Counted from the stretch's first letter, positions 1 through 17,721 are shown. The stretch is DNA of 47,318 nucleotides from Vulcanimicrobiales bacterium (GCA_038231455.1 JBBRLI010000022.1:1-47318); one strand, 5' to 3'. Program-made: numbers and translations. Notes: a model not told the origin generated them from the letters alone.

Positions 1-119
1 GCGGCCTGCGTCACCGTCGCGGCCTGCCCGTGCGCGGTCAGCGTACGAAGACCAACGCGCGCACGCGCAAGGGTCCCAAGCGCACCGTCGCCGCCAAGAA
101 GAAGATCACCAAGAAGTAA
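1..119 (+). CDS. rpsM: 30S ribosomal protein S13, 3' end (partial)
   Basis: Frame from nt 3 reads [38 protein letters not shown], the conserved S13 C-terminus; TAA at 117-119. Not in the ORF track. Confidence 0.97.
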
Positions 120-174
120 TCTCTCCCGGACGGACGAGTTTCTTTGCCCCTGGCGCTTGCGCCGGGGGCTTTTT
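86..174 (+). repeat. rpsM 3'-end direct repeat, copy 1 (intact gene; attL-like)
   Basis: Core CGCCGC(C/G)AAGAAGAAGA is shared with 2447-2463 and 16772-16788; the downstream spacer and terminator are shared with 16791-16847. Confidence 0.85.
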
Positions 175-176
175 TT
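146..176 (+). terminator. Intrinsic terminator after rpsM
   Basis: GCCCCTGGCG-CTTG-CGCCGGGGGC stem-loop followed by a 7-T run. Confidence 0.9.
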
Positions 177-306
177 ATTCTCAGATCTGGAATCGGGTTG
201 ATGGGTTCAATCCAGCGCGACGCCGACGTAGAAAGCCCTCCAAAACTACCTCGCCGAATCCCCGCGCGTAAGCAAAATTCAACAGCAAGTCCGAAGATAA
301 CGCAGA

Positions 307-341
307 AAGTCATTGACTTGCTTGTAAATTGAGCACACTGT
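307..341 (+). promoter_or_regulatory. Palindrome overlapping a possible -35 upstream of the Mrp gene
   Basis: AAGTCA-T-TGACTT at 307-319 contains TTGACT (313-318); only a weak -10 (CACTGT) lies 17 nt downstream. Confidence 0.35.
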
Positions 342-472
342 TTGAGTTGAACCGCCTCGATCAATAGCAAGATCTGGAAGCGCTGTCGGCTGCGTTGAGC
401 CCGCGCAAACGCAGTGCAACCGCCGCGCCCCTGGTCGATGCCACTTCGCGTAGAAGGTAAAAGGGCTCAAGT

Positions 473-1732
473 ATGCAGATCGGTAGTCCCGCACACGACC
501 AGGAACGCGACGACGCGCGTGGCTCAGCGTCCACGCGTTCTCCCGGCGAAAAGCTGTCGGGGATCAGACACGTTATTGCCGTGGGCAGCGGCAAAGGCGG
601 CGTTGGTAAGTCCACCGTGAGCGTGAATCTCGCGTTCGCGCTACAGGCGATCGGGGGGAGGATCGGGTTAATCGACGCTGACGTCCTCGGGCCGAGCATT
701 CCGGTGATGCTGGGACTTCCCACCGGTCAGCCGCCGGTAAAGTCCCCGAACGGCAAGATCGTTCCGGCGGAGCGCCTAGGCCTGAAGGTGATGTCCATGG
801 GCATGCTCACCGGAGACGACAAACCGGCCATCTTGCGCGGCCCGATGGTGGGCAAGTACTTAAAAATGTTCATTGACGCCGTCGAGTGGGGAGAGCTGGA
901 CTATTTACTCCTCGACCTCCCGCCGGGGACGGGCGATACCCAGTTGACGGTCGCACAAAGCATTCAGTTGTCAGGCGCGATTATCGTAACAACGCCGCAG
1001 GAAGTCAGTCTCAAGATTGCCCGTCGCGGCTTGCGAATGTTCGAAACGGTGCACGTCCCCATCCTCGGCATTATTGAAAACATGAGTACTTTTACATGTA
1101 CGCACTGTGGGCAGGGGACGGACATCTTCGGTCATGGCGGCGGCGAGCGCATGAGCCGCGAGCTCGGCGTCCCGTTCCTGGGTGCGATTCCTCTCGACGC
1201 GGGCATCGTCATTTCAGGAGATCGAGGGCGTCCGATCGTGCTCGATCGAGCGCCCTCGCCTGCAGCGCTGGTGTACCGCGCAATCGCCGCTGAGTTAGCC
1301 GACCGACTTCAGGGACGTCCGGCAGGTGAGTTAAAGCCGTTCACGTGGACTTGGGAAACCGGCGCCGGCGAACCGGCGTGGGGGGAAAACGACGTCCGAG
1401 CGGAGGGCTCTCGCACCACCGCAATCGGCTACCGGCAACGCGATGCTCGGACGCTCTCGATTCTGTGGCAGGACGGGCAGCGGAGCGACTTTGACGTCAG
1501 GGACCTGCGGTTAGCGTGCCAATGCGCGCTGTGTGTGTCGGAGATGAGCGGGGAACGCCTTTTAGATCCAAAGAGCATCCGACCGGACGTGGCTCCGCGA
1601 ACGATTTCGAGTGTGGGTAATTACGCCTTAACGATCGGTTGGAACGATGGCCACACGACCGGAATTTACACCTTCGAGCTTTTGCGCAAGCTTGGAGAAC
1701 GCGCTGCGGCGGCGGTCGTCGAGGATGTCTAA
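473..1732 (+). CDS. apbC: Mrp/NBP35 (ApbC) Fe-S carrier ATPase fused to a C-terminal DUF971 (GBBH-like N) domain
   Basis: SGKGGVGKST deviant Walker A, DADVLGPS, LDLPPGTGD, IIENMS..CTHC; C-terminal LRLACQCALC...VGNYAL.I.W.DGH.TGIY is typical of DUF971. Confidence 0.9.
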   Translation: MQIGSPAHDQERDDARGSASTRSPGEKLSGIRHVIAVGSGKGGVGKSTVSVNLAFALQAIGGRIGLIDADVLGPSIPVMLGLPTGQPPVKSPNGKIVPAERLGLKVMSMGMLTGDDKPAILRGPMVGKYLKMFIDAVEWGELDYLLLDLPPGTGDTQLTVAQSIQLSGAIIVTTPQEVSLKIARRGLRMFETVHVPILGIIENMSTFTCTHCGQGTDIFGHGGGERMSRELGVPFLGAIPLDAGIVISGDRGRPIVLDRAPSPAALVYRAIAAELADRLQGRPAGELKPFTWTWETGAGEPAWGENDVRAEGSRTTAIGYRQRDARTLSILWQDGQRSDFDVRDLRLACQCALCVSEMSGERLLDPKSIRPDVAPRTISSVGNYALTIGWNDGHTTGIYTFELLRKLGERAAAAVVEDV

Positions 1733-2360
1733 GAGCCCCGCTGACCCGGCGATTACGATCCGCGCTGAGATTTCCGCGGCGGACCCGGACACGTGTAAGT
1801 TCACCGTCAGCCGTAGCGTGTACCCGGGCGGACCGTTCTTTTTTGACAGCAAGGAACGAGCCAATGGTTCGCCTCTCATCGAGCACTTGTTCGCGCTGCC
1901 TGGCGTTGTGCACGCGCTCGTAAACGAGCATGTGGTGAACGTCGGCAAGGCATCGAGCGCGTCGTGGTCAGAACTGAAATTGGGCATCGGAACAGCTATT
2001 CGGAAGCAGTTGCTTACGGGCGTACCGGCAATCCTCAGCACACCGCGCAACGAAAACGCGCGAGTGCGAAGCGACAGCGAGCTTCGCGTGGTAATTCAAG
2101 AATTGCTCGACAAGGAAGTAAATCGTTCCATCGCAGCTCACGGCGGCAAGATTTCGGTCACCGATGTTCGCGATGCTCGCCTCTTCATTGCGATGAGCGG
2201 CGGATGTCAGGGATGCGCGGCGTCTCAATTGACTCTGCGACAAGGCTTCGAGGTCATGGTGCGCAAGGTTGCGCCGGAGATCGTGGAGATCGTTGACATG
2301 ACCGACCACGCGCTGGGAACAAAACCGTATTACGAGCGCACCTCATCAATCGAACGTTGA
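1725..2360 (+). CDS. NifU/NfuA-family Fe-S carrier (Nfu_N + NifU_C domains)
   Basis: ATG 1725 after GAGG, overlapping the Mrp stop; N-terminal scaffold-like domain (SPLIEHLFALPGV) and C-terminal HGG...MSGGCQGC motif. Confidence 0.88.
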   Translation: MSKSPADPAITIRAEISAADPDTCKFTVSRSVYPGGPFFFDSKERANGSPLIEHLFALPGVVHALVNEHVVNVGKASSASWSELKLGIGTAIRKQLLTGVPAILSTPRNENARVRSDSELRVVIQELLDKEVNRSIAAHGGKISVTDVRDARLFIAMSGGCQGCAASQLTLRQGFEVMVRKVAPEIVEIVDMTDHALGTKPYYERTSSIER

Positions 2361-2446
2361 GTCAACACGAAGAGGCTCCGGGCTTCGGGCCAACCGAACG
2401 CCGACTGCTGATGATGAATCGTGTAGAGCCGCAGCGACGGCAATGC

Positions 2447-2472
2447 CGCCGCCAAGAAGAAGATCGCCAAGA
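2447..2472 (+). repeat. rpsM 3'-end direct repeat, copy 2
   Basis: CGCCGCCAAGAAGAAGATCGCCAAGA matches rpsM nt 89-114 at 25/26 positions; lies in the gap between convergent nifU and gntR. Confidence 0.85.
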
Positions 2473-2492
2473 TCTGGTTCGGACGGGACGAT

Positions 2493-3239
2493 TTATTCGA
2501 TTGGAGGTTCGTCCAGTCTCGTCGAATTTTCTCGGGTGAGGACGTTGGTCACAGCGACACGGGCCGCATCGAGTTGTTCTCGCATCTCATGTCCGGCCGC
2601 TTCTTCGTTGCCCGTCGCGATGGCGGCGACGATGGCGCGGGCGTGCTCGAGCGACGCTGCCATGCGGCCCTCATAGCGCATTGCGATGCGTCGCAGGCGC
2701 CGCACCGGGCCCGAGAGCGCTTCATACGAGCGGCGCAGCGTCGCATTGGCCGTGAGTTCCATGATCACGTCGTAGAAGCGGTCCAACTCGACGGTATAGC
2801 CGACGGTGTCGTTCGCAGCGACGTGCGGTTCGAGCGCGGTGAGGCGTTCTTCGAGCATCGCGCGGCCGACGCCGGTGAGGCGCCGCGCGACGATGCGGAC
2901 GGCCTGCACTTCGAGCGCTTCGCGCGTCTCGTAGATCTCGCCGACATCGTGCGCATCGATCGAACGAACGTAGACGCCGGCGCGCGCGACCGTCACGACC
3001 AGCCCCTCGCGTTCGAGTTGAGCGAAGGCCTCGCGGACCGGCGTGCGGCTCACGCCGAAGTGAGCGCCGATCTCGGCTTCCGCAAGCCGGCTGCCCGGTA
3101 GCAGGCGGCCCTCGACGATCGCTTCGCGCAGAGCCGGCACCACGCGGACATCGGAGAGCGACTCGTTCGAGGCGGGCGGCCGCGCGGACGACGGACGTAG
3201 GCGAGCGACCCCGCCCAGGCTGGAATTTTTCTTCGTCAT
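2493..3239 (-). CDS. GntR-family (FCD) transcriptional regulator
   Basis: wHTH motif LPGSRLAEAEIGAHFGVSRTPVREAF, C-terminal EH..I..AI FCD motif. The start could instead be 3269. Confidence 0.92.
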   Translation of the reverse strand: MTKKNSSLGGVARLRPSSARPPASNESLSDVRVVPALREAIVEGRLLPGSRLAEAEIGAHFGVSRTPVREAFAQLEREGLVVTVARAGVYVRSIDAHDVGEIYETREALEVQAVRIVARRLTGVGRAMLEERLTALEPHVAANDTVGYTVELDRFYDVIMELTANATLRRSYEALSGPVRRLRRIAMRYEGRMAASLEHARAIVAAIATGNEEAAGHEMREQLDAARVAVTNVLTRENSTRLDEPPIE

Positions 3240-3269
3240 GCTCCGCTTCGCGCAGGAATCCGCATCCAC

Positions 3270-3292
3270 ATACCCCGTATTTCGGGTATACT
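3270..3292. promoter_or_regulatory. Putative GntR operator / divergent promoter
   Basis: ATACCC-N8-GGGTAT inverted repeat (3270-3289) overlapping TATACT (3287-3292), between gntR and the crotonase gene. Confidence 0.45.
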
Positions 3293-4036
3293 GTGTCTAC
3301 AACCTCGCCGAACGGTTCCGCCCGCGTTCATGTCGATGGCGCCGCCGACGTCCTCACCGTCACGCTCGATTATCCCGAACGCGAGAACGAGATCTCCGTG
3401 GCAATGTTCGAGCGGCTGGTCGATTTGCTCGGGCGCGAAGCCGATAAGCCCAGCGCGAAAGTGCTCGTGCTGCGCGGCGCCGGCGCCGCCTTCTGCACCG
3501 GCCGGGAGCGCTCGGCGACCGATCTTGCTGGCATGCAGGCCGAAGCGAAGCGGATCATTGCGCTCAAGCGTGCCCTGCGCGCAACGCCGCTCATCACGGT
3601 TGCGCGCGTACACGGCGCGGCCGCAGGGTTTGGTATGGGCCTCGCGCTCCTGTGCGATTTCGCGATCGTCGCGGAGACGGCAACGCTGCAATTTCCGGAA
3701 ATGAAGATGGGCCTGCCGCCCGCCGCGATCATGGCATACCTCGGTGAGTTCGCCTTGCCGCGCCATGCGTTTCCGCTCGTGCTCTTCGGCGATCCGTTCA
3801 CGGCGCGACACGCCAAAGACATCGGCCTTATTTCCGATGTCGTGCCGATGGCCGAACTCGACGCGACGGTCGACGCGCTCGTCAAACGCATTTGCGCCAT
3901 CGGCGCCGCGAGCGCCCGCGCGTGCAAAGAACTCTTCCAAACGATGCAACAGCAATCGTTCGATGCCAACTGCCGGTTGGCCGCGGACGCGCTACCCTTG
4001 GCAAGCGCGACGCTCATTCGTCGCGCCGCACACTAG
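3293..4036 (+). CDS. Enoyl-CoA hydratase/isomerase (crotonase superfamily) protein
   Basis: VLVLRGAGAAFCTG, ARVHGAAAGFGMGLALLCDF, FPEMKMGL motifs. Confidence 0.88.
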   Translation: MSTTSPNGSARVHVDGAADVLTVTLDYPERENEISVAMFERLVDLLGREADKPSAKVLVLRGAGAAFCTGRERSATDLAGMQAEAKRIIALKRALRATPLITVARVHGAAAGFGMGLALLCDFAIVAETATLQFPEMKMGLPPAAIMAYLGEFALPRHAFPLVLFGDPFTARHAKDIGLISDVVPMAELDATVDALVKRICAIGAASARACKELFQTMQQQSFDANCRLAADALPLASATLIRRAAH

Positions 4037-4056
4037 ACCGCCCCGGAGGAACAGCC

Positions 4057-5445
4057 TTGGTTTCCGCACTTCGTACGACCGTCAACGCCGGCCCGCGGCT
4101 CGACCGTTTACCGACAACCGCCCTGCATCGCCGCGTGATGTGGCTGATCGGTATCGGGATGTTCTTCGACGGTTTCGACATCTACGTCGCGGCATCGGTT
4201 CTCGGCGCGCTGCTCAAGAGCGGCTTCTCGACCTTCCCGCTCAACAGCGTCTTCGTGCAGCTCACGTTCCTCGGAACGATGGTCGGCTCGATCGTCACCG
4301 GGTTCCTCGGCGATCGTTACGGCCGCCGCTTTACGTATCAAGCGAATCTCTTGATCTTCGGGCTCGCGGCAATCGCTTCGGCGTTCGTGCCTGATATGCT
4401 GTGGCTCATCGCGATGCGCTTCATCATGGGCATCGGACTCGGCGCCGAGAACGTCGTCGGCTACTCGACGATGACGGAATTCGCACCGGCGCGCGCGCGC
4501 GGCAAATGGCTCGCTACGGTCGCCGTGTTCGTGGTGAGCGGTCTGCCCGCTGCCGCACTGCTTGCGTCGTTCGTGATTCCGCACTACGGCTGGCGGCCGA
4601 TGTTCATCGTCGGCGGCGTCGGCGCACTCATCGTGTGGTATCTGCGCAAGCAGTTGCCGGAATCGCCGCGCTGGCTGGAATCCGTCGGCCGCTTCGATGA
4701 GGCCGACAAGATCGTCAAGACGTTCGAAGACTCCGCGCGCGAACTCGGTGCACTCCCGCCCGTTCCGGCCGCTGCTCCCGCACCGGCCAAAGTTGGCGTC
4801 GGCGCGCTCTTTCAAAAGCCGCTCTTGCCGCGTACCATCGTCGCGCTGGTTACGCTCTTCACGATCAATGCGTGGCTCTACGGTTTCATCACCTGGATTC
4901 CGCAGTTCTTCGTCAAAGAAGGCTTGAGTATCGCAACGTCGTTCTCGTTTGCGCTGACGATGGCTTTCGGTGCGCCGATCGGTGCCGCAATCGGCGCGTT
5001 CACCGCCGATGCGTGGGGCCGCAAGCCGACGATCGTCACGGCGTCGGTCGTGGCGATCGTCTTCGCGGCAATCTATCCGTTCGTTCACGATGCCGTCCTC
5101 TTACCGCTCGTTGGTTTCTGCCTGACCGTGCCGATCTACGTGCTGGTCGCCCTGCTGTTCGGCGTGTACATTCCGGAACTGTTCCCAACCGAAGTACGCT
5201 TGCGCGCATCCGGCATTACCAACATGTTCGGACGCGCTGCGGCCGTCGTCGTGCCACCGCTCGTCATCATCCTCTTCACGCGCAACGGTGTTGCCGGCGT
5301 GCTCGCCTTCATGATCGCGCTGACCGTCGTCCAAATCATCGTCGTTGCGACGCTCGGCATCGAGCCGAAGTCGCGTGGGCTCGAAGAGCTCGACGATGTC
5401 GCTCGCTCCGGTGCGGGCGTCAATGCGCAAACCGTAGGAGTCTAG
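4057..5445 (+). CDS. MFS transporter (aromatic acid/metabolite:H+ symporter-like)
   Basis: TTG 4057 after GGAGGA; FFDGFD, GDRYGRR motif A, PESPRW, ELFPTEVR; about 12 hydrophobic segments. Confidence 0.92.
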   Translation: MVSALRTTVNAGPRLDRLPTTALHRRVMWLIGIGMFFDGFDIYVAASVLGALLKSGFSTFPLNSVFVQLTFLGTMVGSIVTGFLGDRYGRRFTYQANLLIFGLAAIASAFVPDMLWLIAMRFIMGIGLGAENVVGYSTMTEFAPARARGKWLATVAVFVVSGLPAAALLASFVIPHYGWRPMFIVGGVGALIVWYLRKQLPESPRWLESVGRFDEADKIVKTFEDSARELGALPPVPAAAPAPAKVGVGALFQKPLLPRTIVALVTLFTINAWLYGFITWIPQFFVKEGLSIATSFSFALTMAFGAPIGAAIGAFTADAWGRKPTIVTASVVAIVFAAIYPFVHDAVLLPLVGFCLTVPIYVLVALLFGVYIPELFPTEVRLRASGITNMFGRAAAVVVPPLVIILFTRNGVAGVLAFMIALTVVQIIVVATLGIEPKSRGLEELDDVARSGAGVNAQTVGV

Positions 5446-5449
5446 CCGC

Positions 5450-6994
5450 ATGCTCGCCGCTCAACCCTTTCCTAAAACCAGTGTCTTGAACGGACCGAGC
5501 GGTCTGCTGCACGCACCGCTTTTCATCGACGGCGCGTGGTGCGAAGCCGCGGACGCTGCAACGCTTGAGACCGTCAATCCCGCCGACGGGACACGCCTCG
5601 GCACGCTCGCAGCCGCGAGCGCAGCCGATGTGGACCGCGCCGTGCGCGTCGCCGATGCCGCATTCGCGAGCGGCGTCTGGCGCGATGCCGGCAATCAGTA
5701 CCGTGCGCGCGTGCTCAATCGTTTCGCCGATCTCTTCGAGGCCGAACTCGAGACGTTTTACACGCTCGAAACGCGCAACAACGGGCGCCCGATCGTCGAA
5801 ACGCGCGCGCAGATCGGACGTCTTCCCTACTTCTATCGCTACTTCGCTTCGCTCGCACTGACGTACCGCGACTCCGTCATCCCGATCGAAGGCCCGTTCC
5901 TCCACTACACGCAGCGCGTGCCGCTCGGCGTTGCCGCGCTCATGCCGTCCTTCAACCATCCGCTGATGATTCTTTCGAAGAGTCTCGCGCCTGCGCTCGC
6001 GACAGGCAACAGCGTGGTCATCAAGCCCTCGGAACAGACGCCCTACACGACCGTCAGGCTGGTGGAATTGCTCACCGAAGCCGGCGTGCCCAAGGGCGTG
6101 CTCAATCTCGTCAACGGCACGGGTCCGGTCACGGGGGCGGCGCTTTCGCAACATCCCGATGTGCGCAAAATCGTGTTCACGGGCGGGACGGAAGTCGGCC
6201 GTCAAATCGGCATGGCCGCGGCCAAAAACTTCGCGATCTCAACCCTCGAACTTGGCGGCAAGGGCGCGGTCATCGTGTTCGATGATATGCCGCTCGAGCG
6301 TGCCGTAGCCGGTGCCACCTTCGCTGCATTTATCGGCGCGGGGCAAACCTGTGTGTGCGGCGCGCGCATTCTGGTGCAACGCACGATGTACGATAAATTC
6401 TGCGCTGCTTTCGCAGAAAAGGTGAAGCATATTCGCGTCGGCGATCCGAGCGACGAACGCACGCAACTCGGTCCCGTCATTTCGGAGCGTTCGCGTACGC
6501 GCATTCTCGGTATGCTCGATCGTGCCAAAGCCGCTGGCGCATCGCTGCTCGTCGGCGGTGGCATTCCCACCGGCGTCAACGCGAACGGCTTCTTTATCGA
6601 ACCGACGGCCGTATTCAACGTGACGCCGGAAATGGAGATCGCCCAAGACGAAGTCTTCGGCCCGGTCACCGTCGTCATGCCGTTCGAGGATGAAGCCGAC
6701 GCGCTGCGGATCGCGAACGGCACGAAGTTTGGTCTTGCCGCCTCACTTTGGACCAACGACGTCGCGCGCGCCCATCGTGTCGCCTCGAAGTTGATCTTCG
6801 GCATGGTCTGGATCAACGAGCATCACCGGCTCGACCCCGCATCGCCCTGGGGCGGCTTTAAAAACAGCGGTACCGGCCGCGAAACGGGGATCGAATCGTT
6901 TGATGCGTTCACCGAACCGCGCGCCGTCACGGTCAATACGACGGGCGTAACGCCGGACTGGTACGGAAGCGAAACGCCGAAACGCCTTAACTAG
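5450..6994 (+). CDS. NAD(P)-dependent aldehyde dehydrogenase
   Basis: KPSE, FTGGT, catalytic ELGGK and GQTC, EVFGP, PWGGFKNSG motifs. Confidence 0.95.
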   Translation: MLAAQPFPKTSVLNGPSGLLHAPLFIDGAWCEAADAATLETVNPADGTRLGTLAAASAADVDRAVRVADAAFASGVWRDAGNQYRARVLNRFADLFEAELETFYTLETRNNGRPIVETRAQIGRLPYFYRYFASLALTYRDSVIPIEGPFLHYTQRVPLGVAALMPSFNHPLMILSKSLAPALATGNSVVIKPSEQTPYTTVRLVELLTEAGVPKGVLNLVNGTGPVTGAALSQHPDVRKIVFTGGTEVGRQIGMAAAKNFAISTLELGGKGAVIVFDDMPLERAVAGATFAAFIGAGQTCVCGARILVQRTMYDKFCAAFAEKVKHIRVGDPSDERTQLGPVISERSRTRILGMLDRAKAAGASLLVGGGIPTGVNANGFFIEPTAVFNVTPEMEIAQDEVFGPVTVVMPFEDEADALRIANGTKFGLAASLWTNDVARAHRVASKLIFGMVWINEHHRLDPASPWGGFKNSGTGRETGIESFDAFTEPRAVTVNTTGVTPDWYGSETPKRLN

Positions 6995-7040
6995 GAGAGG
7001 TCGATCGCAGCGGGCTACTTGGTTTTGAATGTGCCTCCGG

Positions 7041-7054
7041 GTCGCTTCGGCGAC
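7041..7054. terminator. Small hairpin between convergent ALDH and cytochrome c genes
   Basis: GTCGC-TTCG-GCGAC (UUCG tetraloop); no clear U-tract. Confidence 0.35.
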
Positions 7055-7410
7055 TACATTTTTTGCACGAAGGCGGCGACGTCGTCGACGTCACGTTCGG
7101 AAAGCGGAACCGGGTAGAGTTTCGGCATCGGAGCCAGTGGGTGCTTGATCCACGCGATCGTCGCGTCGTAGTTCTTCCGGTTGTGCTCGCCGCGCAGCGA
7201 TGGCCCCACACCGCCTTCGAGGCCGTTGACGCCGTGGCAGACCGAACAATTGGCGGCAAAGACGACTTTTCCGCGATCCGCATTGCCGACCACCGCGACG
7301 CTCGAGTGGGGCGATGGCGACGCGTCGATCGTCGCCTTGCCGCTACCTCCGGCGCACGCCGCTAGCGCGGCAAGCGCCGCGAATGCAATGATGCCTCGCA
7401 CGCTACGCAT
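7054..7410 (-). CDS. Monoheme cytochrome c lipoprotein
   Basis: Signal peptide with lipobox LAAC, heme motif CSVCH, distal Met in APMP. Confidence 0.9.
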   Translation of the reverse strand: MRSVRGIIAFAALAALAACAGGSGKATIDASPSPHSSVAVVGNADRGKVVFAANCSVCHGVNGLEGGVGPSLRGEHNRKNYDATIAWIKHPLAPMPKLYPVPLSERDVDDVAAFVQKM

Positions 7411-8089
7411 GACCCGATCCTCGCGAAAAAGCAAACGCCGCAGCCGCCATCACACCGGCGGCGATCCATCCGAGGAAGCCCTCGGGGACGCTGCCGCTCG
7501 TGGGCATCGGCAGCACCGGCTGGGGTTCGGCGCGATGCGCCGCTACGTAGGCAACCAATGAATCGAGATCGCGCTCGCTGAGTTGAGCGGTTGAAAATTT
7601 TGGCATGTTGCCCGGACCGAGTCGCACGGCTTCGCCGACCTGCGTGACGCTGGCCCGGTTGAGCGACGGTGCCCAACTCTTGCCGCCGATCGATGCGCCC
7701 TCGGCATCGACCCCGTGACAATGCATGCAGTTCTCCCGAAAAAGTGTGCGGCCGCGCGCGGCGTCGCCGTTCGTGCCGACCGGAGGAATGGGCTCCCCGC
7801 CCGGCTGGACGGAGGTCACGTAGTCGACGATCGCGTCGATTTCGTTTTGCGGAAGTTGCGGCCCGCGATGGCCGACCTGCACCCACGGTACGGCAGCCGG
7901 CATGCGGCCGGTGCCGACCCAGAAGTCGACGTCTGCCGCGCCGACGCCGCGGATCGAGGGCGCGTTCGTCCCGCCACGCAAGTCGACGCCGTGGCACGAC
8001 GCGCACTCTGCTCGGTAGGCGGTCTGTCCGTCGCGGGGGGGCGGACTGCCCAGCGCGATTACCGTCGCGAGCATCAGCGCGGGCATCAT
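7403..8089 (-). CDS. qcrC: Diheme cytochrome c (cc) subunit of a bcc complex
   Basis: Two CXXCH motifs (CASCH, CMHCH), F.VGTGRMP and GP..MP.F motifs, C-terminal G.VPEG+TM helix as in actinobacterial QcrC. Confidence 0.85.
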   Translation of the reverse strand: MMPALMLATVIALGSPPPRDGQTAYRAECASCHGVDLRGGTNAPSIRGVGAADVDFWVGTGRMPAAVPWVQVGHRGPQLPQNEIDAIVDYVTSVQPGGEPIPPVGTNGDAARGRTLFRENCMHCHGVDAEGASIGGKSWAPSLNRASVTQVGEAVRLGPGNMPKFSTAQLSERDLDSLVAYVAAHRAEPQPVLPMPTSGSVPEGFLGWIAAGVMAAAAFAFSRGSGHA

Positions 8090-9837: not shown

Positions 9838-10550
9838 TGGAGTCCTCGCGGTTTGACCGAGTAGGCGACATCGTAGCGATCGATCCACTTTTCGTACTGA
9901 TCGCCGTACGCCATCGGATCGCCGGGAAAGCCCAGTGCGACCCAGCCTTTCGCATCAGCGTTGCCGCCGTAACGCGGATCGGAAAACAGTCCCTGCTTCA
10001 CGTGTTCGAGAAAGATCGCGAAGAACGCCTTGCTCGTGAGAATCGTGAAGCCGTCGATCTTGCCGGCTTCGCAATCGCTCAAAACGCTGTCTTGCACGGT
10101 CGGGTCGAGTCCGGCAAACGTGGCGTGGTGGTTCGCTTGCGCGTACGCGTCGATCGCGGTGAGTGCGTCGCGGTACGCATCGCGCGGGGTGCGCGCGACC
10201 TGCCAACCGTGCCCGCTCGTCGATGCCTTTTGAAACGGCCCTTGCTTGTACATCCGCGCGCCCCAGCCGTAGGCGCCACCGAGGCGCCGATCGATGAACT
10301 CCGCGACGTGCAGATCGCGCGCGCCGGGCGCGCGCGCGTCGCTTGGGTAGATGCGCTCGGCCATCGCCTGCACCGCCGCGAATTCGCCGCGGGTGAGGAA
10401 CGAGAGCGCCGGCGGTTGCAGTTGCGCTTCGTTGCTTGGCTTGTCCGTGCCGTCGATCTGCTGCGCGCAACCGGCGATCGCTCCGGTCGCAGACACGCTC
10501 GCGGCCGTCGTCCAGCGCAGGAAAGAGAGACGTGATTTAGGATCCGGCAT
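9834..10550 (-). CDS. Gluconate 2-dehydrogenase subunit-3 family protein (putative Tat lipoprotein)
   Basis: RIYP.D..PGA.D..V..FID..L and GLFSDPRYGGN...GW..LGFPG motifs; N-terminus SRLSFL...IAGC; GGAG upstream of ATG 10550. Confidence 0.87.
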   Translation of the reverse strand: MPDPKSRLSFLRWTTAASVSATGAIAGCAQQIDGTDKPSNEAQLQPPALSFLTRGEFAAVQAMAERIYPSDARAPGARDLHVAEFIDRRLGGAYGWGARMYKQGPFQKASTSGHGWQVARTPRDAYRDALTAIDAYAQANHHATFAGLDPTVQDSVLSDCEAGKIDGFTILTSKAFFAIFLEHVKQGLFSDPRYGGNADAKGWVALGFPGDPMAYGDQYEKWIDRYDVAYSVKPRGLQ

Positions 10551-11304
10551 CGTAGATCGCTCCATATCGGCGTTCCCGTTCGGCCCAGTCGCCGACGAGC
10601 CACAGTAAGGCGACGAACAGCGGCGAACCACCGGCGAGCCACATGACGGCCCCGGCGTTGGCTTGATCGTGCAGTGCATTCGGATTACGGGCGTAGTGTG
10701 CGTAGAGTACGTACCCGCTCACGTACAAAACAAAGCCCAAGAACGCGCTCATCGGCAACGCGAGAAAGAGCGCGAGCAGGCGGACAGGATGCGATGGGGC
10801 GTGAGGCGCGGGTGCGACGCCGAGCAGCGGCATCCAAAAGAGCAGCGCAGACCCAAGATAGAGCAAATGCTCGAACGCGTGCACCGACTCGTTTTCGAGA
10901 GCGGCTTCGTAGAGCGGCGAGAAATGCGTGCCGTAAAGCACGAGCGCAAACTGCAGCCATGCGACCGCTGGGTGCGTCAAGAAGCGAAGGACGCCCGAGC
11001 CGAGCGCGCGCGCGACAGCGGTTGCCGCGCGCGGCGGCAGCGCGGCGAGCATGATGCGCGTCGGCGCACCGAGCAACATGAGCGGCGCGGAAACGCCGAC
11101 GAGGACGAGGTGCTGCAGCATGTGCCACGAGAGAGACGAGTCGGCGAATTCGTCGACGGGTCCGTAGAGGACCGCAGCGATCGAAACGAGGCCCGCAGCG
11201 AAGGCGATGGCCGCGCGCAACGGGGCGGCGCGGCCCGCGCGTAACGCGCGCGAACGGCCCCATACGTAGAGCGCGAGCGACCCGAGCAGCAGAACGGCAA
11301 TCAT
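10537..11304 (-). CDS. ctaG: Cytochrome c oxidase assembly factor, caa3-CtaG type
   Basis: HMLQHL...APLMLLG, HAFEH, DQANAG.VMW motifs; ATG 11304 overlaps the qcrB stop (ATGA). Confidence 0.9.
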   Translation of the reverse strand: MIAVLLLGSLALYVWGRSRALRAGRAAPLRAAIAFAAGLVSIAAVLYGPVDEFADSSLSWHMLQHLVLVGVSAPLMLLGAPTRIMLAALPPRAATAVARALGSGVLRFLTHPAVAWLQFALVLYGTHFSPLYEAALENESVHAFEHLLYLGSALLFWMPLLGVAPAPHAPSHPVRLLALFLALPMSAFLGFVLYVSGYVLYAHYARNPNALHDQANAGAVMWLAGGSPLFVALLWLVGDWAERERRYGAIYDAGS

Positions 11305-12623
11305 GAGGGCGTCACCGCCTCTTCGCGGTAGCCGCCCTCCGCGGTCCGTCGCAGTTGGACGACGCGTTCCGCCTCGATGCCGTGCCGTTCGCGCCGCAGA
11401 CGCAGTTCGCGGGCGATCTGCGCGGCGACGAAGCCGATCAGCACCGACCCGACCGGTACGGCGATTCGGTAGAACGTAACGAGTCCGGCGACCGAGACGT
11501 GCAGTGCAACAGCCTGTTGATCGTCGCTCGCCGCTAGCGTGAGAAAAAAGCCGGCGGCGATGAACGCGGTGCCGACGCCGACGCGCCATGGCGCGTGCGT
11601 TGCCGGAACCAGCACGTCGTGCAGGCGGTGGTCTCGGGTCAGCCAGGCGTCGATAAAGGGCCAACAATACAAGACGGCAAGAACGACGGTCGGCATAACG
11701 ATGCCGGGCCAAAAGACGGCCGGAATGGGATGCCCGGCGACCGTGATATGCCACGTCGGTCCAAGCCGCAGCGCGCCATCGAGAAAGGCCGCGTACCAGT
11801 CGGGAGTCGCCGGATTGGGCACCGTCCAATCGTGATACGGCCCGAAGCGCTCGATCGGGTTGATTTCGACCGTACCCGCAAGTGCGATGAGGACCCCAAC
11901 GCTGAACGCTAGCGCGGCGACGGTGCGTAGCGCATAGTCGGGCCAAAAGCGTCGACCGACGACATGCTCCGGATCGTCGACGAACTGCGTATGCTTTTGG
12001 AGCACGACCATGCCGAGATGAAGGGTCAGCAACACCGCGATCGTCACCGGCAAGAAATAGACATGGAACGTGTAGAGATGCGGCAGCAGATCGGGGCCCG
12101 GATAGCCTCCGCCGTTCAGCACGTCGGCGGCCCACCCGCCGATAAACGGAATGGAGCGTAGTACTGCATCGGTGATGCGTAAGCCCGTGCCGGCGAGCGC
12201 ATCGTCGGGCAGCGAGTAACCGGTGAAGCCGGTCAGCGAAGCGACGACGAGCATCGTCAAACCGACGATCCAATTGAGCTCGCGCGGCGCGCGGTACGCT
12301 GCGGTAAAGAAGATGCGCGCCATATGCAACAGGATCGCCGCGACGAACGTAACGGCGCTCCAGTGATGCACCTGACGCATCAGGTAGCCGACCGGATCGG
12401 CGCGCGAGAGCGACGCGACCGATGCGTACGCGCCCGCCGGCGTCGCGACGTATACGAACGTGAGCCAGATACCGGTCGCGACCAGCAGCAAAAACGCGTA
12501 GAGTGCGAACTCGCCTAAGTAGAACGACCAGTGGTCTGGAAAAACTTTTGTCATGACGAACCGTACGGCGGCGTTACTGCCGAAGCGCTCGTCGAAGAAG
12601 CGCGCGCCGCGCCGCGACATCAT
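11301..12623 (-). CDS. qcrB: Cytochrome b subunit of a bcc complex
   Basis: KVFPDHWSF.LGE, heme His pairs (RQVHHW...LHMAR; FHVY...LHL), PRELNW, Qo motif PDWY. Confidence 0.93.
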   Translation of the reverse strand: MMSRRGARFFDERFGSNAAVRFVMTKVFPDHWSFYLGEFALYAFLLLVATGIWLTFVYVATPAGAYASVASLSRADPVGYLMRQVHHWSAVTFVAAILLHMARIFFTAAYRAPRELNWIVGLTMLVVASLTGFTGYSLPDDALAGTGLRITDAVLRSIPFIGGWAADVLNGGGYPGPDLLPHLYTFHVYFLPVTIAVLLTLHLGMVVLQKHTQFVDDPEHVVGRRFWPDYALRTVAALAFSVGVLIALAGTVEINPIERFGPYHDWTVPNPATPDWYAAFLDGALRLGPTWHITVAGHPIPAVFWPGIVMPTVVLAVLYCWPFIDAWLTRDHRLHDVLVPATHAPWRVGVGTAFIAAGFFLTLAASDDQQAVALHVSVAGLVTFYRIAVPVGSVLIGFVAAQIARELRLRRERHGIEAERVVQLRRTAEGGYREEAVTPS

Positions 12624-13402
12624 ACGGTGCGCCGCCATTCATCCGGCCCGACGGGTGCGTCGAAATCCGAGCGAGCGATCAGGTAACCTTCACCGTCGAC
12701 GTCGAGCGCGAGTTGCGGAAGCGCGCGCGTCGCAGGCCCCGAGATCGGCCGCGCCGCGTCGAGTACGTCGAAGACCGATTGGTGGCACGGGCAATACAGC
12801 TGGTAATCTTGGTGCCGGTAGATCGCCACCGGACAGCCGGCGTGGGTGCAGATTTTCGAGTATGCGACGTTCCCGTGGGGCGTCCAGTCGGCGCGTTCCG
12901 GCGCCGCGCGAACCACGTCATCCTCAAGCCGCAGCAGCAAGGTTGCCGCTTCCGGCGCACCGACTCGCCCTTGCGGAAAGACCGTCTCGATCGCGCCCAC
13001 GCTGAGATCCGTCGGCCGCAGAGGTACGCCGTCGGCGGTGACCAGCCGAAGTCCGGCATTCCAAATGGGCCCGCGCCGGCCGCCGCGCCTGCCGAGCGCG
13101 ACAACCGGGACGATGCCCAGCACCGCCACCGCGCCGAGCGCGAACATCCACAACCGTCCGAAGACGGTGCGACGCGTCACGTCGCTTGGGAGTTCTGCGG
13201 GCGCCGTCGCCTGCGAGGTCTGGCGCGGCTCGCGCAGATCGCCCGGGGCCTTCAAACGACGAGCTTCGAGACCGGCCGCGACGGCGAATGCGAACGCCGT
13301 TGATGCGGCGAGCCACGCGACGAGCGCGGGCGACGCGTGCGACGAGGCGGCGACCGTAGCAGCAAGCGCGCCGACCAGCGCGAGCCAAAGCGCACGTCTC
13401 AT
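12620..13402 (-). CDS. qcrA: Rieske Fe-S subunit of a bcc complex
   Basis: CTHAGC and CPCHQS motifs, GPATRALPQL; internal TRRTVF Tat motif after N-terminal hydrophobic segments; ATG 13402 overlaps the ctaE stop. Confidence 0.92.
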   Translation of the reverse strand: MRRALWLALVGALAATVAASSHASPALVAWLAASTAFAFAVAAGLEARRLKAPGDLREPRQTSQATAPAELPSDVTRRTVFGRLWMFALGAVAVLGIVPVVALGRRGGRRGPIWNAGLRLVTADGVPLRPTDLSVGAIETVFPQGRVGAPEAATLLLRLEDDVVRAAPERADWTPHGNVAYSKICTHAGCPVAIYRHQDYQLYCPCHQSVFDVLDAARPISGPATRALPQLALDVDGEGYLIARSDFDAPVGPDEWRRTV

Positions 13403-13962
13403 CGAACGACGTAGACCGAGGCCCAAACCGCGAGCCAAACGACGAAGACGAAGTGCCAATAATACGCGATCGCCTCGACTCCGGCTTGACGCTCCGCGGT
13501 GAACGCCGGGCGACCGAGGAAGAGCGTCAGCGCCAGCAGCAGAACCGCGCCGACCAGCACGTGCGCCAGATGCGTGCCGGTGAGCACGTAAAAGAGCGTG
13601 CCGTAGGCATCGGTCGCGATTTGAAAGTTTACCTGGTGCCATTCGCGGAGCGCGATGTACGTGAAACCCAGCGCGCAGAATATGGTCAAGACGAGCATCG
13701 CGCGCGCCCGGCCGCGGTGCTTTTGAATCGCCGCGTTTTGGGCAAAGAGCATCATTATGCTTCCAAGCCCCAGCAGCGCGGTTCCGAAGGCTGCCCCGGC
13801 AGGATCCAATTGGGCTCCTAAGGGCGGCCAGTGCGCGCTTTGGCCGCGCAGGTCGTACCACGCCGCCAGCAGGCCGGCGAAGAGCATCGACTCTGAAGCC
13901 AGGAAGACCACAACGCCGAACACCAACGGGTGTGCTCGAACGGCCAGCGAGCGCATATGCAC
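13399..13962 (-). CDS. ctaE: Heme-copper oxidase subunit III
   Basis: FLASE.MLF, FYVLTGTH.AHV, YYWHFV..VW motifs. Start is 13962 (GTG) or 13956 (ATG). Confidence 0.92.
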   Translation of the reverse strand: MHMRSLAVRAHPLVFGVVVFLASESMLFAGLLAAWYDLRGQSAHWPPLGAQLDPAGAAFGTALLGLGSIMMLFAQNAAIQKHRGRARAMLVLTIFCALGFTYIALREWHQVNFQIATDAYGTLFYVLTGTHLAHVLVGAVLLLALTLFLGRPAFTAERQAGVEAIAYYWHFVFVVWLAVWASVYVVR

Positions 13963-14011
13963 AGCCGCGTACCCGCCGAACTCGGCGGCGAAACGGACGC
14001 GGCGCTAAACG

Positions 14012-14692
14012 ATGCGCGAGCAGACGTGGCCAGCTCTTGCGACCTCGCAATCGCATGCACTCGCCTCGAACTGGACGCTCTTCCTCATCGTCGGGTCGTG
14101 CGTAGCCGTGCTGGTATGGGGCTTGATCGTGTTCGCGCTCGTCCGCTACCGGCGCTCGGCGACGTCCGGCGCGCCGCCCCAATTCAGCAACAACTATCCG
14201 CTCGAAATCGCGTGGACCGCGATTCCGCTGGTCCTAGTCTGCGCGCTGTTCATCCACACCTATACGGTTGAATCGCGCGTCGACGCGGTCGTCGCCCGAC
14301 CCGACGTCATCGTTCACGTCAATGCGTATCGATGGGGCTGGCGGTTTGTGTACACCGGCGGGCCCACCGTCGGCGGTGCTGCGTCGAGTCCCATCGGCGG
14401 TAATCCGGTGAGCGCGAAACCCGAACTGGTGCTTCCGTTCGGCGAGACGACGCGAATCGAGCTTTCTTCCGACGATGTCACGCACTCGTTTTGGGTGCCG
14501 GACTTTCTTTTCAAGCGGGACGCGATTCCCGGCCAAACGAGTGGATTCGACCTTCAACCGACGCGCACGGGAACGTTCCTTGGCCGCTGCGCGCAGTTCT
14601 GCGGACTGAACCACGCGCTGATGCAGTTCACGGTTCGCGTCGTGCCGCCGGCGGAATTCCTGCGGTGGCGTAAGGAGATCGCTCTACGATGA
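14012..14692 (+). CDS. ctaC: Cytochrome c oxidase subunit II (CuA)
   Basis: Two TM helices (LEIAWTAIP), DVTHSFW, CuA motif CAQFCGLNHALM. Confidence 0.95.
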   Translation: MREQTWPALATSQSHALASNWTLFLIVGSCVAVLVWGLIVFALVRYRRSATSGAPPQFSNNYPLEIAWTAIPLVLVCALFIHTYTVESRVDAVVARPDVIVHVNAYRWGWRFVYTGGPTVGGAASSPIGGNPVSAKPELVLPFGETTRIELSSDDVTHSFWVPDFLFKRDAIPGQTSGFDLQPTRTGTFLGRCAQFCGLNHALMQFTVRVVPPAEFLRWRKEIALR

Positions 14693-16314
14693 CAGGCGAG
14701 ACCGCTCCAACGGGCACGACCACGGCGGCGCGCTCGGACTTGCTCAGCTGGATGACCACGACCGATCACAAGCGCATCGGCATTCTGTATCTGGTGACGA
14801 GCCTGGTGTATTTCGCGGTGGCCGGCGCGCTCTCGATCGTAATCCGTACGCAGCTCGCACGCCCCAACGCACACATCGTCGGTCCGCACGAGTACGCGCA
14901 GCTCTTCACCCTGCACGGTACCGCGATGATCTTTTTGTTCATCGCGCCGTTTGCGCTGGGGCTTGCAAATTTCTTGATCCCGCTGCAAATCGGGGCGCCC
15001 GATATGGCGTTCCCGCGTTTGAACGCAACCTCCTATTGGTTATTTTTCTTCGGCGGGCTGGTCGTTTTCGCGGGCGCCGGCACGAACGAAGGTGCCGCCG
15101 CTGCGGGCTGGACCAGCTACGCGCCACTTTCCGAGATCAAAGTCAGCACGGGCCTGGGACAGGACATGTGGATCGTCGGCGTCTTCCTCGTGTCGGTGGC
15201 GACGATTCTCACGGCGATCAATTTCATCACGACCGTCTTCATCTACCGTGCACCCGGCATGACGATGTGGCGCATCCCGATCTTCACCTGGGAGATGGTC
15301 GCGACGTCGCTGCTCGTGTTCCTGGCCTTTCCCTCGCTCGCCGCCGACCTGCTGCTGCTGTTCGTCGACCGGCATTTCGGCGGCCACGCCTTCGATCCGG
15401 CGCACGGCGGGAGCGCAGTGCTTTGGCAGCACCTCTTCTGGTTCTTCGGACACCCCGAAGTGTACGTCCTAATCTTGCCGTACTTCGGCGTTGTTAGCGA
15501 GATCTTGCCGGTGTTCTCGCGCAAGCCGATCTTCGGTTACACGGGTCTCGTGCTCTCTGCGTTTGCCATCGCCGGCCTCTCGATGGGTGTCTGGGCGCAC
15601 CACATGTTCACCACGGGATCCGTGAACAACCCGTTCTTCAGTTTCGTCTCGTTCCTGATCGCCGTGCCGACCGGCGTGAAGTTCTTCAACTGGATTGCAA
15701 CGATGTGGCGCGGTTCGATTTCGTTCGAAACGCCGATGCTCTTTACGATCGGCTTTCTGATGAACTTTCTCCTCGGCGGCGTTACCGGGGTGATGATCGC
15801 TTCGCCGCCGATCGACTATCAGGCGCACGACTCGTACTTCATCGTCGCGCACTTTCACTACGTTATTGGCGGCGGTAGCCTGTTTGCAATCTTCGCCGCG
15901 CTGTTTTTTTGGTGGCCAAAGTTTTTCGGGGTTAAACTCGATGAGGTGCTCGGGCGTTGGTGCTTTTGGCTGCTATTCATTGGCTTCAACGTGACGTTTT
16001 TGCCGATGCACTGGATGGGCATCGTCGGGATGCCGCGTCGCGTTTTCACCTACGCCGACGCAGGCGCGTTGCCAATTTTGAATCTCATCGCGACTGCGGG
16101 CTCGTACCTCATGGTGGTCGGTGTCGTCGCGTTCGTCGTTAACGTGATCGTCAGTGCGCGTCGGCACGAACCGGTGGGCGACGATCCATGGGGTGCGAAC
16201 TCGCTCGAGTGGGCGACTTCGTCGCCGCCGCCGGAGCATAACTTTACGCGACTGCCGCCGATCCGCAGCGAGCGGCCCGTGTACGACATGCGGCGCGCGA
16301 AGGGGGATGGATGA
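14689..16314 (+). CDS. ctaD: Cytochrome c oxidase subunit I, A1-type
   Basis: TTTDHKRIG, PDMAFPRLN (D-channel), FGHPEVY, WAHH, PTGVK (K-channel), VAHFHY. Confidence 0.98.
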   Translation: MTGETAPTGTTTAARSDLLSWMTTTDHKRIGILYLVTSLVYFAVAGALSIVIRTQLARPNAHIVGPHEYAQLFTLHGTAMIFLFIAPFALGLANFLIPLQIGAPDMAFPRLNATSYWLFFFGGLVVFAGAGTNEGAAAAGWTSYAPLSEIKVSTGLGQDMWIVGVFLVSVATILTAINFITTVFIYRAPGMTMWRIPIFTWEMVATSLLVFLAFPSLAADLLLLFVDRHFGGHAFDPAHGGSAVLWQHLFWFFGHPEVYVLILPYFGVVSEILPVFSRKPIFGYTGLVLSAFAIAGLSMGVWAHHMFTTGSVNNPFFSFVSFLIAVPTGVKFFNWIATMWRGSISFETPMLFTIGFLMNFLLGGVTGVMIASPPIDYQAHDSYFIVAHFHYVIGGGSLFAIFAALFFWWPKFFGVKLDEVLGRWCFWLLFIGFNVTFLPMHWMGIVGMPRRVFTYADAGALPILNLIATAGSYLMVVGVVAFVVNVIVSARRHEPVGDDPWGANSLEWATSSPPPEHNFTRLPPIRSERPVYDMRRAKGDG

Positions 16315-16688
16315 TCGTCGGTCGGCGGCTCTTCATCTCCTCGGCGACGTTCTCCGTCGCGATTGCCGCGGCATATTGGCTCACCTCGCGCGAGATCGCC
16401 GGGACGTTTCTGCTCGGCTTCATGGCGTTCGCGCTCTCGTTCGCAGCCGGCTATATGATCGTAGCCGAAAAGGACGCCGACCTCTGGGGCGACGATGGAA
16501 ACGCGACGATGGCCGATGCCGCCGACCAGGTCGTCGGTACGTACTCGATCCGCTCGCCACTGCCGTTCTGGTCGGCACTCTCGCTGACCGCCCTGGCACT
16601 TGGCCTCGTGATTTCGCCCGCGCTTGCGATCCTCGGCGGACTCGCCGCCCTCGTTCTTGGCGCTGCGTTCATCATGAACAGCCGCTAA
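16311..16688 (+). CDS. ctaF: Cytochrome c oxidase subunit IV (actinobacterial CtaF-like)
   Basis: Small hydrophobic protein with YW...E.AGT..L and an acidic loop followed by an S..PFW motif; directly follows subunit I. Confidence 0.75.
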   Translation: MIVGRRLFISSATFSVAIAAAYWLTSREIAGTFLLGFMAFALSFAAGYMIVAEKDADLWGDDGNATMADAADQVVGTYSIRSPLPFWSALSLTALALGLVISPALAILGGLAALVLGAAFIMNSR

Positions 16689-16768
16689 CAAGGGGGATGC
16701 CCGGCCGCGCGCAGTTGTGGATGTGCATCGCGACCACCAACGGTTGGCGCGCTTGGAATCCCGAGCTT

Positions 16769-16847
16769 CGTCGCCGCGAAGAAGAAGAGGTAATCTCTCC
16801 CAGACTGACGCGTTTCTTGCCCCTAGCGCCTTGCGCCGGGAGTTTTT
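16769..16847 (+). repeat. rpsM 3'-end direct repeat, copy 3, with decayed terminator (attR-like)
   Basis: Hand alignment to 86-174 gives about 70 of ~80 positions identical plus one 9-nt gap; reads VAAKKKR* then TAATCTCTCCC...GCCCCTAGCGCCTTGCGCCGGGAGTTTTT. Confidence 0.9.
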
Positions 16848-16860
16848 GTTGCCTTATGAT
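16831..16860 (+). promoter_or_regulatory. sigma70-type promoter for a leaderless transcript
   Basis: TTGCGC(16831-36)-N18-TATGAT(16855-60)-6 nt-ATG(16867); no Shine-Dalgarno. Confidence 0.5.
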
Positions 16861-16866
16861 GCGGGC

Positions 16867-17568: not shown

Positions 17569-17721
17569 CCGCCTGCACATCTCGCCTACCGTTTATTGTC
17601 TTTTCGTAAATCGGCTGCATTCGCGAAACCGCCGGCCATGTTGAAGCGCTTATCGCCAATCGCGGAATGTCGTCGTCATCGAAAACGTGGAGCGATTCGG
17701 GCGGACGGGGCCGAATGAGGA

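Follow-up and report, generated by a model that had tools for sequence, protein, structure and literature searches.

Gene blocks and rpsM tail copies inside a ribosomal operon

We analyzed a stretch of 47,318 nucleotides (here called the window) from a Vulcanimicrobiales bacterium (GCA_038231455.1, JBBRLI010000022.1). The window is the entire contig C22 of the source genome, G000, a 3.7-Mb metagenome-assembled genome in 106 contigs. The gene order rpsM-rpsK-rpsD-rpoA-rplQ is among the most conserved in bacteria. In the window, rpsK starts at position 27141, on the same strand as rpsM, so that all 27 kb after rpsM lie inside the rpsM-rpsK operon. These 27 kb hold block A (an Mrp-type ATPase and an Nfu scaffold), block B (from a GntR regulator to an aldehyde dehydrogenase [ALDH]), block C (a respiratory cluster), an open reading frame (ORF) named u, and block D (Table 1). 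They also hold two decayed copies, t2 and t3, of a unit U whose first copy, t1, comprises the tail of rpsM itself, its stop codon, a spacer, an intrinsic terminator, and then about 20 nt. The resulting array reads U-A-t2-B-C-t3-u-D-rpsK and forms an insertion zone, unusual and sharply delimited, within a ribosomal operon; the order of its cassettes differs between strains. An initial annotation, made from the sequence alone, had described these blocks as tandem cargo between copies of the rpsM 3' end. Its blocks and borders hold, but it had overlooked rpsK at 27141 and hence did not recognize that the insertion zone is internal to the operon.

The extra rpsM tails are paralogous copies

The 17-nt core of the rpsM 3' end, CGCCGCCAAGAAGAAGA, occurs at 89-105, 2447-2463, and 16772-16788, and our sequence search confirmed all three positions given in the initial annotation. 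Copy t2 matched rpsM at 25/26 positions over 2447-2472 (the count reported initially) by BLAST against the whole genome (E 3.3e-5) and at 29/33 positions over the longer stretch 2440-2472. A gapped alignment of t2 reached about position 2505 with a score of 33.2, compared with 10.4 ± 2.0 for shuffled sequences, none of which was equal or better (0/2000). The spacer part of t2 is marginal by itself, with 107/2000 and 217/5000 shuffles as good, and both the stop codon and the terminator hairpin have been deleted from this copy. Copy t3 aligned to 86-177 with 73 matches, 8 mismatches, and 12 gap columns, which is in good agreement with the earlier description of a last copy extending over the stop codon, spacer, and a decayed terminator. 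Its identity to t1 was 90% in the aligned positions, spacer and terminator included, its local score was 52.5 (shuffles, 10.0 ± 1.5; 0/2000 as good), and it was recovered from its own genome by BLAST at an E value of 3.8e-14. We conclude that t1, t2, and t3 are real paralogous copies of the rpsM tail.

The copies differ in what remains of the terminator. In t1, a 10-bp stem at 146-169 is followed by seven thymines, the T-run extending to 177; this hairpin folds at -27.2 kcal/mol (z -3.66) and was found by a terminator scan. The hairpin of t3 folds no better than shuffled sequences (-13.2 kcal/mol, z -0.19). A stable GC-rich hairpin with a T-run, as expected of an intrinsic terminator, is thus present in t1 and lacking in t3 and t2. 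At their left ends, t2 starts at a position corresponding to 82-89 of rpsM and t3 at one corresponding to 85. As had been proposed, the ORF map places both copies between genes, t2 between the stop codons of the Nfu gene (2360) and the GntR gene (2493) and t3 between the CoxIV stop codon (16688) and the start of ORF u (16867).

Among the 106 contigs, all other matches to U were at most 34 nt long and no better than E 0.06. The sole exception, 33 identical nucleotides where contig C40 ends, is the overlap of that contig with the start of the window. The copies of U are therefore not members of a dispersed repeat, a concern raised initially. A motif scan with the stop-spacer pattern returned three short metagenome contigs, chance matches unrelated to U; the same pattern run against genome contigs returned solely the contig of G001, a genome of the same genus.

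Three further candidates were rejected. A fourth copy of U before rpsK (about 27025-27050) was equaled by 637/2000 shuffles, and an extension of t3 into rpsM coding sequence upstream of 16768 by 340/2000. The 8-bp sequence AGATCTGG, found at 183 and 2470, could be taken for a target-site duplication; it is better explained as part of the repeated unit, and position 370 has another.

The repeat junctions are correctly assembled

The window opens inside rpsM. The body of the gene lies on C40, behind rpmJ, and the end of C40 corresponds exactly to window positions 1-92. This overlap of 92 nt compares with 141 nt in 35 other contig overlaps of the assembly, and it is probably due to co-occurring relatives with a common rpsM sequence. 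The overlap stops right where the repeat core begins.

We then aligned assembled Logan contigs from public runs to the window: from X1, the source run, and from X2 to X5 and X19, other public runs. Contigs of X1 span t2 (800-5518, 0 differences) and t3 (15666-18292, 1 difference), and t3 is likewise present on contigs from other samples. In G001, rpsM, the terminator, and the Mrp and Nfu genes lie together on one contig. Independent contigs thus cross both t2 and t3, and the misassembly considered in the initial annotation does not account for them.

Block content and order differ among close strains

Apart from three segments present in the window alone, G001 and the window are collinear. These segments are 2392-17690 (t2, B, C, t3, and u), 18789-20622 (the GGDEF-EAL gene), and 22431-24490 (the nitroreductase and NmrA genes). 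It carries rpsM-U-A with the same junction as the window and has neither t2 nor t3. The borders of the first segment lie off the repeats, at 48 nt to the left of t2 (2392) and 840 nt to the right of t3 (17690).

A different arrangement was found in the other runs. X2, X3, X4, and X5, which carry four study codes, contain a strain about 95% identical to the window (e.g., 190 differences in 3587 nt), in which position 177 is joined to 2501 via the same 30 letters, on one contig per run. Similarly, in X19, a glacier sample, 176 is joined to 2479 on one contig. In these strains, therefore, the rpsM terminator leads straight into the GntR block and A is missing there, so that five other runs hold an empty-site-like allele for block A, bounded by U. 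In X2, X4, and X5, the 30 letters after the terminator match 2471-2492 at 21/22 positions by eye, which indicates that the window's t2-B junction had a U-B junction as its ancestor.

Block A was found elsewhere in these sister strains. The Nfu gene is joined to block C, at 2346 to 7050 in X2 to X5 (with 95 letters between in X2, X4, and X5) and at 2352 to 7050 in X19. Each of the sister-strain joints was seen on one contig, at that strain's own depth, and no such joint occurs in the contig listing of X1. Adding 95 to 2346 gives 2441, the start of t2, which we treat as a numerical coincidence. Sister-strain contigs cover 2501-6087 and 6132-6994 and leave the ALDH gene at 6994 into unlike sequence, at least 157 letters of which follow the ALDH stop codon ahead of A. 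The sister order is thus rpsM-U-B-...-A-C, with A between the ALDH and cytochrome c genes and with t3 and u kept (contigs 15668-17858). In X19, almost no contig depth was found over 16676-17342, which is not readable as an absence of t3 and u.

For block A, identity to G000 is 92 to 95% in the sister strains and 91.8% in G001. Block C is 95 to 97% identical to that of the sister strains, and block D is 82 to 90% identical to that of G001. These figures hint at an exchange of A among lineages. Overall, gene content behind rpsM does vary among relatives, as the initial annotation had anticipated in suggesting a search for empty sites and variable cargo. Its proposal of successive insertions at rpsM is partly supported: the blocks are separable and A has an empty-site-like allele, and a clean empty site for B and C together was not found.

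The cargo is accessory

COX1 of block C is one of two paralogues in this genome; it shares 49% identity with the core copy, located on C37. Relatives of this paralogue with 62 to 71% identity over the full or nearly full length were found in 6/24 genomes, with fragments in G006 and G013; it was not found in G001. The Mrp protein of block A shares 94% identity with its G001 counterpart and only about 40% with the core Mrp, which is encoded on C8 in G000 and is also present in G001 and 18 other relatives. Among the relatives compared, the Mrp paralogue is confined to the genus. Blocks B and C have a GC content of 0.64, versus 0.613 for the genome. The cargo is therefore accessory, with the patchy distribution or foreign character expected of genomic islands.

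Block C resembles an accessory respiratory chain complete in itself, leading from the oxidation of a sugar or alcohol to oxygen. Its parts are a three-subunit enzyme similar to GMC/gluconate dehydrogenases, two cytochromes c, CtaG, an aa3-type oxidase, and a cytochrome b accompanied by a Rieske protein with an unusually long ORF (520 amino acids).

The rpsM-rpsK spacer varies throughout the family

To compare relatives, we took the spacer in a first sample as the distance between the Pfam hits for S13 and S11. At the class level, rpsM and rpsK are adjacent in all 11 relatives searched (family f3, one of which, G036, is an unpublished genome), with spacers of 129 to 203 bp in 11/11. At the order level (f2), the spacer is about 700 bp in 4/5 genomes, the fifth being without a match. 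In the bacterium's own family (f1), it measures 0.8 to 17 kb in 18/24 genomes, those in which a single contig holds both genes. Of 60 genomes of this family in a second sample, 47 had spacers of 231 bp to 15.5 kb and 2 had no rpsK within 19.5 kb, and in the remaining 11 the stretch was interrupted by a contig end. The rpsM-rpsK spacer is thus variable throughout this family of the Vulcanimicrobiota, from 0.2 kb to more than 19 kb.

The spacers of other genera are unrelated in sequence to that of this genus. We also searched the loci of relatives, G001 included, for repeats of their own rpsM tails. Twenty loci gave matches of 12 to 16 nt only; among 60 additional loci, matches of 15 to 23 nt were found in 4, with E values of 0.001 to 0.005. 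As a positive control, the copies in G000 were recovered at 2e-7 and 7e-7.

The family spacers have a recurrent core (loci L013 to L029) of genes for a DUF72 protein, a MobA-like nucleotidyltransferase, an MFS transporter, and a Cu_amine_oxidN1 protein. The last, of 430 to 510 amino acids in the relatives, lies there on the plus strand immediately before rpsK and is inverted in G000 and G001 (25524-26855 in the window). Among 104 ORFs in the spacers of 19 relatives, analyzed with Pfam, the lineage-specific extras include penicillin amidase, sulfatase, MazF, and an IS1595 transposase. This IS1595-family transposase, in the spacer of G014 (L023, G014:C1 2365-3315), is the sole mobility gene in the 19 spacers. 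In G003 (L014, G003:C3 4888-9204), rpsL, rpsG, fusA, and tuf of the str operon are found in the rpsM-rpsK spacer; in that genome, core translation genes, too, have moved into it.

No recombinase accompanies the blocks

We next looked for genes that could have mobilized the blocks. Pfam analysis of 38 window frames of at least 80 amino acids (473-33506) found no recombinase, excisionase, relaxase, transposase, or transfer gene, in agreement with the initial annotation, which had noted that no integrase is present. It had suggested looking for an integrase adjoining rpsM in relatives; the 104 ORFs of the 19 relatives' spacers contain no recombinase. G000 has six PF00589 matches, two of them at contig ends and none on C22. 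Of 406 PF00589 matches in 121 family genomes, the best 150 include none that is within 60 kb of rpsM. The site-specific integration proposed initially thus finds no integrase either in the window or in the spacers of the 19 relatives.

Measured against known classes of elements, the region gives a mixed picture. As in a genomic island or an integrative and mobilizable element (IME), t1, t2, and t3 are attL/attR-like direct repeats that hold the 3' end of the target; the recombinase gene expected inside such an element and near att is lacking. Integrons have an IntI integrase, which is absent here, and the right end of block A has no attC-like hairpin (fold z -0.26). Transposons and insertion sequences are recognized by a transposase, absent from the 38 frames, and by terminal inverted repeats, of which none was found for 178-2440, and they duplicate 2 to 15 nt of target, compared with a repeated unit of about 90 to 115 nt here. 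The region therefore fails to show the integrase that defines an island, an IME, or an integron, and it behaves like a tandem island array.

Ends of ribosomal protein genes are established att sites: streptococcal integrative and conjugative elements (ICEs) occupy the 3' ends of rplL, rpsI, and rpmG, and their direct repeats measure 12 to 54 bp (PMC4701971). The window resembles streptococcal ICEs and IMEs in having the 3' end of a ribosomal protein gene as the target, flanking direct repeats that contain this end, and a target gene left intact. Unlike the ICEs so described, the blocks have neither an integrase nor a conjugation or mobilization module, the insertion splits an operon, the target is rpsM, and the repeat is about 90 to 115 nt long and includes a terminator. 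Tandem arrays of Salmonella genomic island 1 (SGI1) are described at the 3' end of trmE (PMC2297512). As in those arrays, the blocks of the window follow one another, with a copy of the target gene end at the border of each. In contrast to SGI1, which has its own integrase and an 18-bp core, they are mutually different, without mobility genes, and have decayed borders. Among the papers listed by our searches on ribosomal-gene and tandem islands and on islands of this phylum, none was seen to name rpsM as an integration target; one that mentions rpsM employs it for phylogeny.

Two other comparisons are instructive. Like integron arrays, the window has promoterless or self-contained cassettes in series behind a fixed site, in an order that depends on the strain; unlike integrons, it has no IntI and no attC-type hairpin at the end of A, and its repeats are direct copies of a gene tail. 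Like genome-plasticity regions, which homologous recombination in their flanks maintains, it has conserved flanks (rpsM and rpsK), a mostly metabolic content that varies within the family, and gene-scale insertions and deletions. It differs from them in that the flanks are the halves of a ribosomal operon, adjacent in the class-level relatives searched, and in the additional tail duplications, which were seen in this lineage alone.

How the blocks may have arrived

We tentatively favor the view that t2 and t3 are scars left when accessory blocks were inserted, one after the other, at the 3' end and terminator of rpsM, and that recombination at U, with no integrase supplied by the blocks, has since led to their gain, loss, and rearrangement. 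Under this scenario, read from the arrangement of the copies, the target unit of about 90 to 115 nt would be duplicated at each insertion. Starting from rpsM-U-u-D, blocks B and C would have entered first at the rpsM tail, the displaced old tail becoming t3 before u; A would have entered later at the same tail, the displaced tail becoming t2 before B. Selection would hold the functional t1 while t2 and t3 decay, so that the newest copy, and the only intact one, would be found on rpsM. Afterwards, 2392-17690 would have disappeared from G001, unless it had never been there, and A would have been moved in the sister strains. The joining event could be a RecA-dependent homologous crossover of the Campbell type, in which a fragment newly arrived or looped out recombines through its own U with the U already in place; with two copies of U present, loop-out and reentry at U would give the same borders again.

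Three considerations led us to this view. Since U contains a genus-specific noncoding spacer and terminator, the duplicated DNA would come from this genus's own locus. With such a source and no recombinase nearby, a homologous crossover is preferred over an integrase. Finally, both extra copies start at positions 82-89 of rpsM, which argues for a defined place of crossover rather than random illegitimate joins or independent tandem duplications.

Several points weigh against a homologous crossover. The recombination event itself does not appear in the assembled contigs. G001 is not a clean empty site for B and C, since the segment it lacks is not bounded by repeats and takes ORF u with it. The stretch 6995-7049 of the window, the site of A in the sister strains, contains no U-like sequence, so that at least one step was not mediated by U. 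A left border shared by both copies would be expected of a site-specific recombinase, and the homologous model needs the added assumption that later events reused the first duplication. Moreover, none of the 80 other family genomes searched, G001 included, has comparable repeats of its own rpsM tail, which makes a one-off possible.

The explanation that comes next is the one put forward in the initial annotation, classical site-specific integration, in which A and B+C are remnants of tandem integrative elements and a tyrosine or serine integrase, since lost or acting in trans, recognized CGCCGCCAAGAAGAAGA. We consider it possible but somewhat unlikely. Each block is indeed flanked by direct repeats that contain the 3' end of the target gene, the extra copies start no more than 4 nt apart in rpsM, the sister strains have an apparently exact empty site for A, the streptococcal ICEs and SGI1 arrays described above offer a precedent, and the six PF00589 matches show that G000 encodes tyrosine recombinases elsewhere. 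This has to be set against the absence of mobility genes from the 38 window frames, of recombinases from the 19 spacers (which hold a single IS1595 transposase), and of any of the best 150 PF00589 matches from the 60 kb around rpsM. In addition, the repeat is not a short core but about 90 to 115 nt of genus-specific noncoding DNA, the cargo is made up of ordinary metabolic operons, tail repeats are found in 0/80 other family genomes, and the G001 borders do not coincide with the repeats.

Still less probable, in our judgment, is tandem duplication from inside the rpsM tail, once or twice, followed by complementary gene loss, which could also have permuted A and B in the sister strains. Such a course would explain, without any recombinase, partial tails that run through the stop codon, spacer, and terminator, as well as the A-B versus B-A order in close strains; the indels at 18789-20622 and 22431-24490 relative to G001 show that ordinary illegitimate events occur in this spacer. 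However, repeat searches found tails only, with no remnant of an A, B, or C gene across any tail copy, and a shared left breakpoint is unexpected for two independent duplications. The duplication also predicts that 6995-7049 is followed by 178 onward, whereas the sister-strain contigs leave the ALDH gene at 6994 into unlike sequence.

The low-complexity, AAG-rich core, the start of the contig inside rpsM, and its atypical overlap with C40 could suggest chance matches of Lys/Ala codons or a chimeric metagenome assembly at a conserved gene, which we regard as highly improbable because the t3 match runs over 60 nt of noncoding spacer and terminator (0/2000 shuffles), the copies are unique in the genome, contigs from the source run and from other samples cross them independently, and G001 has rpsM-U-A on a single contig.

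Our order of preference is thus a homologous crossover, then an integrase lost or acting in trans, then duplication with differential loss, and at a great distance artifact or chance, with some probability assigned to none of these. Extending the homologous crossover further, one could speculate that U serves as an integrase-free cassette-exchange site, at which accessory modules (the Fe-S assembly pair, the catabolic block, and the second respiratory chain), each carried with or beside a copy of U, would loop out, reenter, and so be shuffled within and between Vulcanimicrobiota strains, in an integron-like manner, by host recombination alone; this stronger proposal is doubtful. If such exchange does take place, a housekeeping terminator would suffice for cassettes to accumulate and change order, with no recombinase dedicated to the task, which bears on how island hotspots arise before or after an integrase becomes involved. 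If an integrase were found instead, rpsM would join rplL, rpsI, and rpmG as a ribosomal gene att site, in a new phylum. Independently of the mechanism, rpsM-rpsK stands open throughout a family whose phylum is almost uncultured, and the gap is a site where accessory metabolism is deposited and exchanged; a bc-type complex with a second cytochrome oxidase and an additional pair of Fe-S assembly genes are among its contents here. In this lineage the insertions have left scars that are datable, the decaying copies of the tail and terminator. Block order differs among close strains.

Other features of the region

The features of the window are listed in Table 1. Rfam and tRNA scans gave no match in 1-27 kb. 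ORF u had no match in a tblastn search of the loci of 20 relatives, and the G001 spacer does not contain it.

Table 1. Repeats, genes, and gene blocks of the window
Feature	Position	Strand	Basis or remark
rpsM (S13) 3' end, last 38 codons and stop	3-119	+	Translation; PF00416 at C22:3-65 and C40:15317-15637
t1, unit U	82-197	+	rpsM tail, stop, spacer, intrinsic terminator, then ~20 nt
Block A, gene 1: Mrp/NUBPL-type P-loop Fe-S ATPase, C-terminal GBBH-like_N (DUF971)	473-1732	+	Pfam
Block A, gene 2: Nfu/NifU-like Fe-S scaffold	1647-2360	+	Pfam; true start probably downstream of listed ORF start
t2, decayed copy of U	2440-2505	+	Tail coding part 2440-2470, then letters like spacer and post-terminator
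Block B: GntR/FCD regulator	2493-3269	-	Pfam
Block B: enoyl-CoA hydratase	3293-4036	+	Pfam
Block B: MFS transporter	3892-5445	+	Pfam
Block B: ALDH	5450-6994	+	Pfam
Block C, extent	7050-16688	mixed	Pfam and ORFs
Block C: small cytochrome c ORF	7054-7434	-	CxxCH by eye
Block C: dihaem cytochrome c	7403-8089	-	Pfam
Block C: GMC oxidoreductase	8089-9888	-	Pfam
Block C: gluconate 2-dehydrogenase subunit 3	9834-10679	-	Pfam
Block C: CtaG	about 10537-11300	-	Pfam
Block C: cytochrome b	11301-12638	-	Pfam
Block C: Rieske protein	12620-14182	-	Pfam
Block C: COX2, COX1, CoxIV	14012-16688	+	Pfam
t3, decayed copy of U	16768-16850	+	VAAKKKR-stop, spacer, degenerate hairpin with T-run
ORF u, no assigned function	16867-17568	+	TonB_C match E 0.0047, under cut-off
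Block D, nine genes taken as real	17650-26855	-	ORFs and Pfam
Block D, left end of range: unassigned ORF, then fasciclin	from 17650	-	ORFs and Pfam
Block D: GGDEF-EAL	18798-20588	-	Pfam; missing in G001
Block D: ornithine cyclodeaminase, 3-hydroxyisobutyrate-dehydrogenase-like	between 20588 and 22480	-	Pfam
Block D: nitroreductase, NmrA	22480-24057	-	Pfam; missing in G001
Block D: ice-binding-like protein	24549-25523	-	Pfam
Block D: Cu_amine_oxidN1-domain protein	25524-26855	-	Pfam
rpsK, rpsD, rpoA, rplQ	27141-29632	+	Pfam; PF00411 for rpsK

With the strong rpsM terminator 27 kb upstream, rpsK-rpsD-rpoA-rplQ must use a promoter of its own. A noncoding stretch of 285 nt (26856-27140) precedes rpsK, which has a TTG start at 27141; it is GC-rich and possibly structured, and a TTGACA-like box lies near 26850. 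An S4-type leader may perhaps stand before rpsK.

The sequence AGATCTGGAA(T/G)CG occurs twice 5' of the Mrp gene (183-195 and 370-382, 187 nt apart), and AGATCTGG recurs in t2 (2470-2477). This 8-mer is found 53 times in the genome on both strands; its four occurrences on one strand of the window are about 12 times the expectation. The AGATCTGGAA/AGATCTGG element may be an operator.

Within the ice-binding-like gene, an imperfect GGTGTCGGTGT repeat with a period of 12/27 nt extends over 25216-25364 and would encode a low-complexity linker. Toward the far end of the window, a tRNA-Ser(CGA) gene lies at 44028-44117, and a 16S rRNA gene runs from 46880 past the end of the contig (47318).

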